Sequence record: PQ400055.1
Length of the DNA stretch: 64,000 nt
Direction: 5' to 3' (one strand)
From: a phage
Shown piece by piece: positions 3,777 to 5,822 of the stretch (the stretch's first letter is position 1; every line of letters begins with the position of its first letter). Both the position numbers and the translations under genes were made by a program. The notes below the pieces were generated by a model. That model saw nothing but the letters and a program-made list of their open reading frames with translations, did no database searches and was not told where the DNA came from.

Positions 3777-5524
3777 GCGTGATTGAAGGGATTAACGCAA
3801 TGGCGACGGATGAACACCCGCTACATTTAGCGCATCCGTCTACACTAGAAACTAAAATTGATTCAAACGGCATTGAATGGATTTTATCAAAGCATGATGA
3901 TAAATGGTATCCTAAAAAGTTTTCTGACTATCTGAAATTAAACAGACCGCAGAAAATAAGGATGCAAAGCACTGATCCAACAAATTATAAGTTCTTTAAA
4001 GATAGTGACAATATTCGCACGCGGTATATGCGATTAAAGAACTTGCGAAGGGCGAATATTAAAACTCAGTATACCCCTGAAATGATTGCAGAGTGGAAAC
4101 GATGCCGTAAAGATATTGTGTATTTTGCCGAAACCTATTGCGCAATTACACACATCGACTACGGTACAATCAAAGTACAATTGCGTGATTATCAGAAAGA
4201 TATGCTTAAGATCATGCATGAAAACCGCATGAGTGCACATAAACTCAGTCGTCAGCTAGGGAAAACTACCGCTGTAGCAATATTCCTTGCTCACTACGTT
4301 TGTTTTAATAAAGACAAAGCGGTAGGTATACTGGCACACAAAGGATCAATGGCAGTTGAGGTTCTAGAACGTACTAAACAAGCAATTGAACTATTACCAG
4401 ACTTCTTACAGCCAGGTATTGTTGAATGGAACAAGAAATCAATTGTTCTTGAAAACGGTTCAAGTATTGGTGCTTATGCGTCGTCTCCTGATGCCGTGCG
4501 TGGTAACTCGTTCTCGTTTATCTACATTGACGAATGCGTTAGCGGCTTGACCAAAGTTACACTACGTGATAAACTAACAGGTGAGATTAAAGAATACACT
4601 ATGTTAGAGGTTAAGATGATGGCTATTCAGCAAAAGTTGAATAAAATTAAAGAGTTATTACTGCCGCACGCAAAAAATCCAAACTTAACTCGCGGTTGGG
4701 TTCCTGGCGTAACTATGGATATGTTGGAAGAATACAAAGAGTTTTTCGACACACATTTTCATAAAACCGAATCCATGAGAGAGTTTATCGCATGTGTAAC
4801 AAATGATATTCTGGATCGTCCCGTTTGCTCTACGAAAGGTTGTGGTTGTCGTGTGGAATTAAGCAAGAATGGTCCATACTATAAGGATAAATGCCATAAC
4901 TACTGCACAGAAAAATTGCCTGGGCGCTTAGGGAAAATATCATCAAAAATGGTTATCTTCCGTCGTTTTGAGTGTCCAGAATGTGGGATGTATGCTGTTA
5001 AAAATGAAGGTTATCTTTGCCGTAAATGTGGTTACGCCAAACAAGGCGAGGCAATGAAACGTCTATACGTCGAAAACGGCGATGAAATGCGCAAAAAGTG
5101 CAACGGTAAGAAAACACCCGAACAAAGGGCTAAACAGTCCGAGCAAGTTAAACAGCGTATTCTGAATGGTGAATTTACTCCTAAGACGACTAACCGTCTT
5201 AATCACAATCGCATTAAGTATGATGGTCATAACTTTCGTAGCTCATGGGAACTATCTTTCTATAAAGATATGAAAGCTAAAGGCGTTAATATTGAATATG
5301 AAACGCTTCGTGTTACATACAAATTTAAAGGAAAGAATCACGTTTATATTACGGACTTCGTAGATCACGATAATAAGATCGTTTATGAAGTTAAGCCTAA
5401 GCGACTTGTTGAAGACCCAAAAACAATGGCGAAAGAACACGCCGCTATAGAATGGTGTAAAGAAAACGGATATACTTTCGAATATATTCACGAGGATTAT
5501 ATTAATGAACTTTTGGAATCTTGA
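3773..5524 (+). CDS. 17: terminase large subunit gp17 N-terminal extein (to about 4534) fused in frame to intein N-terminus plus zinc-ribbon/nuclease domain; ends at TGA
   Basis: N-terminal 254 aa align with T4 gp17 up to Walker B (FIYIDE vs IYIED). Then [10 protein letters not shown] (intein block-A-like), four CxxC pairs, and a D..EVK nuclease-like C-terminus before stop at 5522. Confidence 0.85.
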
Positions 5525-5822
5525 CGGATTCGAAGTTCTCACCGAAAACGGTTTTAAAGATTTTGATGGCATAAAAGAAACATTTGGTATGATCTGGAAA
5601 CTAACATTTAGTGATGGATCATACCTTGAATGCTCAGAAAGCCATAAATTAAAATCAAGTGACGGCTTTTTTATTGAAGCCGATGATATAGAGGCTGGAT
5701 TCGTTACGTCTTCCGGCCTTACTGTCATTAGTAAAGATTATGTTGGTGAAGACTTTTTATACGATCTAACTAATGTTGCCGATGGCAACCATTACACTAC
5801 AAACAATGTAGAATCTCACAAT
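4535..5822 (+). mobile_element. intein-like element (Hint domain plus zinc-ribbon and PD-(D/E)xK-like endonuclease) inserted in terL; reading frame broken internally
   Basis: Starts with Cys codon TGC at 4535 (CVSGLTKV), ends ..VESHN at 5822, followed by +1 Cys (CAFIQNW) matching T4 gp17 CAFIPNF. Blocks B (SESHKL), F and G ([20 protein letters not shown]) present. Length 1288 nt is not a multiple of 3; frame shifts between 5451 and 5524. Confidence 0.8.

Follow-up and report, generated by a model that had tools for sequence, protein, structure and literature searches.

A probable trans-spliced split intein, fused to a nuclease, interrupts the large terminase gene of an RB49-like coliphage

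How does a T4-type phage make a working large terminase when the gene for it is broken directly behind the codon for the catalytic glutamate of the ATPase? The question is raised by sequence record PQ400055.1, from which a stretch of 64,000 nt (here called the window) was analyzed. The window belongs to an RB49-like (Krischvirus) T4-type phage, 99.8% identical to Escherichia phage kaaroe in the region of terL, the gene for the large terminase (TerL; gp17, the product of gene 17, in T4), and this terL carries an insert of 1288 nt. We suggest that the insert is very probably a mobile intein-nuclease element, which makes terL a two-gene, "fractured" locus that is spliced in trans, and that its nuclease serves in homing. 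The mobile element is real and apparently active; trans-splicing, DNA cleavage and its target, and a functional role for the fusion of the nuclease to the N-terminal intein piece (IntN) are what we infer for this phage. All features described below are on the plus strand unless otherwise stated.

When terL of the window was aligned with the intein-less terL (1824 nt) of the sister phages RB49 and Phi1, only one gap was seen, beginning at 4535. As the terL region of the window is 3112 nt long, the insert is 1288 nt and occupies 4535-5822, exactly the coordinates proposed in an earlier note on this DNA, and its absence from RB49 and Phi1 marks it as an insertion and not as native terminase sequence. 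Its ends are ambiguous by 3 nt at the DNA level, since the codons for the first cysteine of the intein (Cys1) and the first cysteine after it (Cys+1) are both TGC. Apart from the insert, terL is 99.4% identical to that of RB49, with just 11 nucleotide differences in the flanks, and gene 17 is intact, at 1824 nt, in about 50 further Krischvirus records. The N-extein (3773-4534, 254 aa) contains the ATPase subdomain with Walker A (GKT), Walker B (IYID) and, as its final residue, the catalytic Glu; it differs from RB49 gene 17 at 7 nt only, can be aligned with T4 gp17, and matches Pfam Terminase_6N (E=1.4e-25) up to profile position 106 of 215, where the match halts. The C-extein (5823-6884, 353 aa and the stop) runs from Cys+1 (5823-5825) through the remaining ATPase domain and the RNase-H-like nuclease domain; it differs from RB49 at 4 nt only, picks up Terminase_6N again at profile position 107, and matches Terminase_6C with E=6.3e-23. 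Joined, the two make a TerL of 607 aa that is equal in length to RB49 gp17 and colinear with both RB49 and T4 gp17, so that the exteins do match T4 gp17 on both sides, as the note had claimed. An alignment to PDB 3ezk places the insertion site directly after the Walker-B catalytic Glu, between E254 and C255 of RB49, which correspond to E256 and C257 of T4 gp17. At this site T4 gp17 reads IYIDE-CAFIPNF; the "IYIED" quoted for T4 was incorrect.

Both ends of the insert encode recognizable parts of an intein. IntN (4535-4639, about 35 aa, its C-terminal limit being approximate) contains block A/N1 and starts with Cys1 (4535-4537). Its sequence, CVSGLTKVT..., can be aligned both with the start of the contiguous mini-inteins that phage vB_VmeM-32 and Desulfovibrio phage 7757 carry at this site and with the IntN of HY03, phiR1-RT and PspYZU05, which is 41-43 aa long and is followed by a stop. 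All seven N-pieces that were aligned have Cys1, and in the AlphaFold2 (AF2) model of the IntN-nuclease polypeptide, IntN forms a beta-hairpin (residues 7-11 and 18-22) followed by a helix. The C-terminal piece, IntC (5505-5822, 106 aa including Met), contains blocks B, F and G, with the block-B His in SESH at 5643-5645, the block-F Asp at 5763-5765, and the terminal His-Asn at 5817-5822. Searched against PDB as a single sequence, it matches 6dsl_B (CatC, of the consensus atypically split intein Cat) over its full length with E=9.5e-12. A family profile, built from IntN and IntC of the window, the pieces of four phages, IntC only of Campylobacter phage F341, and the mini-inteins of vB_VmeM-32 and Desulfovibrio phage 7757, matches CatC with E=2.8e-22, gp41-1 with 1.2e-8 and VidaL with 1.9e-7, as well as DnaX, DnaE and DnaB inteins. 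The two values for CatC put the intein match far beyond chance. The AlphaFold model of IntC (pLDDT 86) has 6dsl_B as its best Foldseek match (TM 0.81/0.75), and among the top 50 matches nearly all are inteins, two being bacterial intein-like domains.

The residues expected to carry out splicing are conserved in these relatives. His47 (of SESH), Asp87 and Asn106 are invariant both in the family-profile alignment and in an alignment of 25 sequences; Cys+1 is invariant in the latter; and His105, which precedes the terminal Asn, is invariant in the smaller family alignment and nearly so among the 25. The class-1 hallmarks listed in the earlier note (Cys1, the block-B His of SESH, the block-F Asp, HN and Cys+1) are thus all present, and invariant or nearly so. 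The nucleophiles, blocks B, F and G, the Hint fold, and the intact host protein left on removal identify the element as a class-1 intein. Based on the conserved catalytic residues, the viability of the phage, and relatives that splice (AceL-TerL, GOS-TerL and Cat), we infer that it is active in splicing. A group I or group II intron was rejected: no group I intron or other Rfam match was found at E<=1 in 4300-6100, and Hint blocks are encoded at either end of the insert, in the reading frame of the adjoining extein. No paralogs of the intein or of the nuclease were found elsewhere in the 64-kb window.

The insert is not, however, a contiguous intein with an internal insertion, as the note had it. 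Its length is not a multiple of 3 and it does not form a single reading frame; it cannot, therefore, be translated as one intein. Instead, the locus consists of two genes. ORF1 (3773-5524, 583 aa) encodes the N-terminal part of TerL, the 35-aa intein N-piece and a nuclease of 294 aa, and ORF2 (5505-6884, 459 aa), in another frame, encodes the 106-aa intein C-piece and the C-terminal part of TerL. They overlap by 20 nt. At the gene junction (5492-5524), a Shine-Dalgarno sequence, GAGGA (5492-5496), precedes the ATG of ORF2 (5505-5507), and ORF1 ends with TGA at 5522-5524. The annotations of kaaroe, TB34, JK32, SAP and phiS have a stop, a frame change and a restart arranged in the same way; G2494 aligns in this region without indels, and the GoldenSnicker record is linearised at the start of ORF2. 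A metagenomic T4-like phage contig (L017), whose insert is only 57% identical to that of the window, has the same two ORFs and the same 20-nt overlap, and Shewanella phage Thanatos-2 has the same two-ORF layout with an overlap of 13 nt. Judged by its sequence, the element is a naturally split intein whose two pieces part between blocks A and B. Given a stop, a frame change, and a restart with its own Shine-Dalgarno sequence, splicing must occur in trans, and, as the carriers are plaque-forming isolates, their TerL must be functional.

It could be argued that a contiguous intein has only seemingly been broken by a frameshift in sequencing or assembly, or that terL is a pseudogene. The length of the insert is just one base off a multiple of 3, and the annotation of G2494 offers nothing but a misc_feature "similar to large terminase protein". 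We find this explanation scarcely credible. The stop, restart and 20-nt overlap are identical in seven independently sequenced Krischvirus genomes and recur in the 57%-identical contig, while the break takes forms of its own in Thanatos-2 and in the HY03 group. The Shine-Dalgarno sequence and ATG are conserved but the sequence of the overlap is not; purifying selection acts throughout; and the isolates are viable. Moreover, an IntC that begins a protein is common. The 106-aa IntC had no match in a word-indexed search for homologs; an exhaustive search of representatives, used in its place, found 510 IntC-like clusters at E<=1e-3 among 1.84 billion representative proteins, and in the best 150 of these, IntC is at the very N-terminus (split) in 93 and internal (contiguous) in 57.

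The conservation of the junction bears equally on the possibility that programmed ribosomal frameshifting at 5505-5524 joins ORF1 to ORF2 and that the precursor splices in cis. The frame of ORF2 is indeed +1 with respect to that of ORF1, and a T-rich run (CTTTTGG) occurs within the overlap. However, GAGGA is found 5-8 nt before the IntC ATG in all lineages examined, and the overlap sequence varies between them, a pattern that favours restart and disfavours programmed frameshifting. The three ORFs of HY03-type loci differ in frame, trans-splicing of homologous split halves occurs in vitro, and Rfam shows no frameshift element. Frameshifting is accordingly most improbable, and we retain translation of two separate proteins.

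A few other features of the two-gene region were noted. The conserved C-terminal (T/H)-E-D of the nuclease is encoded by the stretch that includes GAGGA (5490-5507, with equivalents in L005, L007 and L017), and this stretch doubles as the Shine-Dalgarno sequence of the IntC gene, so that one sequence is under two constraints. No internal promoter or terminator was found in the insert: there is no T4 late TATAAATA and no terminator, and sigma-70-like matches are at the level expected from shuffled sequence. Translation of a free nuclease from an internal ATG (4616 or 4619, behind GAGG) was considered and is not relied on, the Met codons being missing in L017 and Thanatos-2. A minus-strand ORF of 158 aa (5252-5728) in the nuclease/IntC region has no family match and was treated as spurious. 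In TB34 (L002), a 1-base insertion near the 3' end of terL, at the equivalent of 6868, lengthens ORF2 to 1416 nt and moves its end to the start codon of the tail sheath gene; either the base is a sequencing error or TB34 truly has a variant C-terminus.

We propose the following course of events. One late mRNA would give both proteins, with ORF2 translated from its own GAGGA and ATG within the last codons of ORF1. IntN, tethered between the N-terminal part of TerL and the nuclease, would dock on a partly folded IntC and complete the Hint fold, as experiments have demonstrated for the homologous AceL-TerL, GOS-TerL and Cat inteins. Class-1 splicing in trans would then proceed by an N-S shift at Cys1, trans-thioesterification to Cys+1, and cyclisation of Asn, joining E254 to C255 in a scarless TerL of 607 aa and setting free a complex of IntN-nuclease with IntC. 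Because the break falls directly behind the catalytic Glu of Walker B, ATPase activity is expected of neither half until the two have been spliced. In a mixed infection, the nuclease would cut an intein-less terL near the DE/C site, and repair with the intein-bearing genome as template would insert a copy of the element, together with some flanking markers.

Splicing might nevertheless be dispensed with altogether if the intein pieces were a non-covalent dimerisation module of a two-piece terminase, comparable to the genes-in-pieces NrdA of phage Aeh1; a homing endonuclease can split an essential phage gene that still works as two peptides (cited in PMC10448857 and PMC2677866). Against this, all the splicing residues (Cys1, the block-B His, the block-F Asp, His-Asn and Cys+1) are conserved in a deep family, relatives of the element splice, and some 140 aa of Hint sequence with a 294-aa nuclease would be left wedged in the ATPase core, directly behind the catalytic Glu. 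A terminase that works unspliced is thus very unlikely, and we continue to regard the element as one that splices in trans.

What, then, is the nuclease? Its 294 codons lie between IntN and the stop, in frame with IntN and, as the earlier note had recognized, between Hint blocks A and B. The N-terminal module (4640-4933) is a helical region with a cysteine cluster (C98, C103, C105, C120 and C124 of the insert; 4826-4906) and is probably a DNA-binding module. It is kept only in fused forms, with 57% identity to L017 and 31% to Thanatos-2, and has no Pfam or PHROG match; its helices are modelled by AF2 with pLDDT 80-94, and the cysteine cluster with low confidence. The nuclease core (4934-5521) comprises a zinc ribbon, CPEC...CRKC (4973-5035), a helical linker, and a PD-(D/E)xK domain at about 5207-5521. 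The zinc-ribbon cysteines pointed out in the note are therefore real, but only two of its four CxxC pairs are strict (CPEC and CRKC), the rest being a Cx4CxC and Cx3C cluster. The catalytic tetrad, E239 (5249-5251), D274 (5354-5356), E285 (5387-5389) and K287 (5393-5395), is invariant in an alignment of the window nuclease with 11 database homologs, and the proposed D..EVK signature corresponds to the last three of these residues.

Profile searches, which the note had suggested for this clan, place the core above the cut-off for two Pfam families: Tn7_TnsA-like_N (PF08722; 36.6 bits, cut-off 26.5) and Phage_endo_I (PF05367; 29.9 bits, cut-off 29.1). It also matches the endonuclease family PHROG 15427 (1.2e-48). 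The PD-(D/E)xK domain is modelled by AF2 with pLDDT >90, and the top Foldseek matches are TnsA (1t0f) and the catalytic domain of I-Bth0305I (3r3p), both with probability 1.0, followed by Bax1, Vsr and others. A profile of the nuclease family aligns with T7 endonuclease I (E=0.009) across the catalytic Glu and Asp. On these matches and models, the nuclease can be classed as a canonical TnsA/T7-endonuclease-I-like PD-(D/E)xK enzyme. An EDxHD (Vsr-like) homing endonuclease was considered and rejected: the core is without an invariant His, the canonical ExK Lys is invariant, there is no Vsr Pfam match, and the similarity to 3r3p and 1cw0 is one of general fold only. The EDxHD family, in contrast, has a composite motif in which a catalytic His is the general base and there is no canonical Lys (PMC3239194).

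Free-standing relatives have the same nuclease core behind variable N-terminal modules, including NUMOD3 (PF07460) and similar zinc fingers. Phage homing endonucleases are usually built in this modular way, with a constant core and exchanged N-terminal modules, and the nuclease is most likely the homing endonuclease of the element. It might instead be a T7 endonuclease I-type junction-resolving enzyme, domesticated for packaging and delivered together with the terminase. This would agree with the alignment to T7 endonuclease I, with weaker PHROG matches to "Holliday junction resolvase" families, and with the production of the nuclease in stoichiometric amounts with TerL. However, about 90% of near-identical Krischvirus phages are without the nuclease and package normally, the nuclease sits within a self-splicing element at a conserved catalytic site, its free-standing relatives are modular in the way just described, and the fold is equally near the homing endonuclease I-Bth0305I. 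A domesticated resolvase is, for these reasons, quite unlikely, and a role in homing is preferred.

Between the window and phiS, synonymous divergence over the parts of the insert is 0.17-0.23, and pN/pS is 0.05 for IntN, 0.03 for the nuclease N-terminal module, 0.08 for the nuclease core and 0.02 for IntC, compared with 0.03-0.07 for the exteins. Every part of the insert is under purifying selection, which is strong within Krischvirus, and the nuclease is not decaying. The element is present in 7 of about 60 near-identical Krischvirus records. In the Shigella phage JK32 (L003), the insert and its proximal flanks are nearly identical to those of the window and the 3' third of terL has diverged by about 12%; when 6216-6884 was compared, the divergence was found to begin at about 6216, a sharp recombination boundary within terL. 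At the Asp codon that lies 4 nt before the insertion site (4529-4531), all seven intein-bearing Krischvirus alleles have GAC and the three intein-less alleles examined (RB49, Phi1 and AV108) have GAT; the codon may be a co-conversion or target-site marker. The purifying selection, the patchy presence, the JK32 mosaic and the GAC/GAT difference are compatible with homing and co-conversion, and do not prove them.

Several observations weigh against a trans-spliced, mobile element of the kind we propose. As single sequences, neither intein piece has a Hint family match in Pfam. Of the searches for a Hint domain suggested in the earlier note, this one failed, although the PDB sequence, profile and fold searches all returned inteins; PF14890 is matched by three of eight members of the intein family, the 43-aa IntN region, too short a query, found no match in PDB, and NCBIfam gave nothing useful. 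The IntN of the window carries a C-terminal extension of 294 aa, and its characterised homologs have a free IntN of 25-37 aa. The GAC/GAT marker rests on just three intein-less alleles, and mosaicism in T4-like phages is also produced by general recombination. Finally, when genera are compared, divergence is greater in the intein and the nuclease than in the exteins, which suggests long (vertical) residence of the element over frequent jumps between genera.

The wider distribution of the family bears on how the fusion arose. IntC homologs are found in terL in 82 phage records, and of 2555 records that have the N-domain of a T4-type TerL, about 74 run on into an IntN. HY03 (Tequatrovirus), phiR1-RT, TG1, PspYZU05, SG1 and others have the classic fractured gene, with three ORFs: the N-terminal part of TerL and an IntN of 41-43 aa followed by a stop, a free-standing endonuclease of 199 aa, and IntC with the C-terminal part of TerL. 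GenBank labels in these loci are "endonuclease" or "hypothetical protein" only. They share with the window the insertion site and the GAGGA/ATG restart, and are 58-64% identical to it in IntC and 46-50% in the nuclease core; they differ in that IntN stops and the nuclease is separate, without the N-terminal module of about 98 aa. Contiguous mini-inteins of the same family, with the same blocks, are found at the DE/C site in vB_VmeM-32, Desulfovibrio phage 7757 and the metagenomic sequences P0021 and P0025. These show the element minus its nuclease: there is one ORF, and a short linker takes the place of the window's nuclease, stop and restart.

The long, fused form occurs in three diverged lineages, namely the group of the window, L017 and Thanatos-2. 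Thanatos-2 is 55-57% identical to the unfused HY03 group in the nuclease core and 73-74% in IntC, compared with 44% and 51-59%, respectively, to the fused forms of the window and L017. As Thanatos-2 is closer to the unfused HY03 clade, the fused form is most parsimoniously older than the split between the clades, and the short free-standing form would, on the six sequences compared, most parsimoniously have arisen by deletion of the N-terminal module. It is possible, though we hold this only tentatively, that the in-frame fusion of IntN and nuclease is a selected, working architecture, a "half-integrated" intein, and not the result of a lost stop codon. In such an intein the endonuclease may be covalently attached to IntN and have only non-covalent contact with the other part of the Hint domain, the site between blocks A and B being non-canonical. 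If true, the element would be a living intermediate on the path where free-standing endonuclease genes and inteins merge or separate, and a TnsA/endonuclease-I-like PD-(D/E)xK family would be added to the intein-associated homing endonucleases, in tractable phages of E. coli K-12.

The note took an intein at such a site in T4-like terminases to be unfamiliar, an impression of novelty that is not supported: the 82 phage records apart, a precedent was published in 2009, and, by sequence and model, the element belongs to the known "atypical" TerL split-intein family of GOS-TerL, AceL-TerL and Cat, for which trans-splicing has been experimentally established (PMC11766414). With these three it shares a T4-type large terminase as host, a break that separates block A (N1) from the remainder of the Hint domain, and a long IntC (104-122 aa) with blocks B, F and G, and with AceL-TerL and Cat also the Cys1/Cys+1 chemistry. 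It differs from them in the IntN that runs in frame into the nuclease and is not free, and in its occurrence in cultured coliphages, theirs being from metagenomes or an engineered consensus.

Dassa et al. (2009) described a gp17-like terminase locus in metagenomic data from Lake Gatun as "fractured at an unusual point"; of its N-terminal motifs, only N1 was outside the C-piece, and the locus was the sole exception to the canonical break (PMC2677866). In 15 fractured loci, they found overlaps of 6-69 bp between the 3' end of the endonuclease gene and the start of IntC (PMC2677866). The window resembles these fractured genes in its phage origin, in the order of N-extein with IntN, nuclease, and IntC with C-extein, and in the overlap of the nuclease 3' end with the IntC gene, which at 20 nt is inside that range. 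However, theirs have a free-standing endonuclease ORF and three ORFs in all, whereas the window has two, with the 5' junction fused in frame; and their endonucleases are GIY-YIG or Vsr-like (EDxHD), whereas that of the window is TnsA/endonuclease-I-like. In 2012, T4-related Campylobacter phages were noted to have inteins in their terminase (PMC3322345), and a terminase intein is also annotated in the record of CP220.

With TnsA of Tn7 and T7 endonuclease I, the nuclease has in common the restriction-endonuclease fold and the E/D/ExK tetrad, and with I-Bth0305I the fold and a tie to fractured genes and introns; unlike them, it is not part of a transposase, is not a stand-alone resolvase, and lacks the EDxHD motif. 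A 2025 preprint on intein-associated endonucleases lists LAGLIDADG, HNH, Vsr-like, GIY-YIG and endonuclease-VII-like types, and a TnsA/endonuclease-I-like type is not among them. In the searchable literature, whose coverage is limited, we found no description of an in-frame IntN-nuclease fusion, of a TnsA/endonuclease-I-like nuclease tied to an intein, or of the atypical TerL split-intein family in coliphages. The kind of element is known, and its nuclease family and in-frame IntN fusion look new.

Atypically split TerL inteins are valued tools of protein engineering. To our knowledge, they have hitherto come from metagenomic reads, with no host, phage or biology attached. The family can now be placed in plaque-forming coliphages (kaaroe, JK32 and TB34, with HY03 in the T4 genus), and near-isogenic coliphages with and without the intein (RB49, for example, is intein-free) make trans-splicing and homing testable in vivo. 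One could ask whether trans-splicing is obligatory for packaging, whether the break at the catalytic Glu times or gates the terminase, whether the TnsA-like nuclease drives homing of the intein, and how a free-standing endonuclease gene turns into an intein domain or an intein domain into a free-standing gene. Annotation pipelines are also affected, in that ORF1 is named "hypothetical protein" or two "terminase large subunits" are listed.

Other arrangements of terL were seen among the relatives. In Campylobacter phage F341 (L009:1489-2817), a gene for IntC and the C-terminal part of TerL lies downstream of the neck-protein gene, and the half for the N-terminal part of TerL was not found in the first 50 kb of the record (L018:1-50000); the terminase halves of this group seem to be unlinked. 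Escherichia phage AV108 (OR352938.1; L004:495-3311), a sister Krischvirus, has no insert at Walker B, and its terL carries another, contiguous intein of 331 aa with LAGLIDADG-like motifs at the Walker-A site (...SRQLGK/ALDVNT...IPTHN/TTAVAIF, the slashes marking its ends). Residue 1 of that intein is Ala, which hints at a non-class-1 mechanism. The annotated TerL ORF of the Vibrio phage vB_VmeM-32 (L010:1102-3216) starts with an IntC-like piece of about 118 aa that ends in SHN before TT at the Walker-A site, a second intein that is likewise atypically split, and the same protein also has its contiguous mini-intein of the window's family at DE/C. The metagenomic P0012 and P0013 have the same start, and some metagenomic TerLs, such as P0012, appear to contain several inteins.

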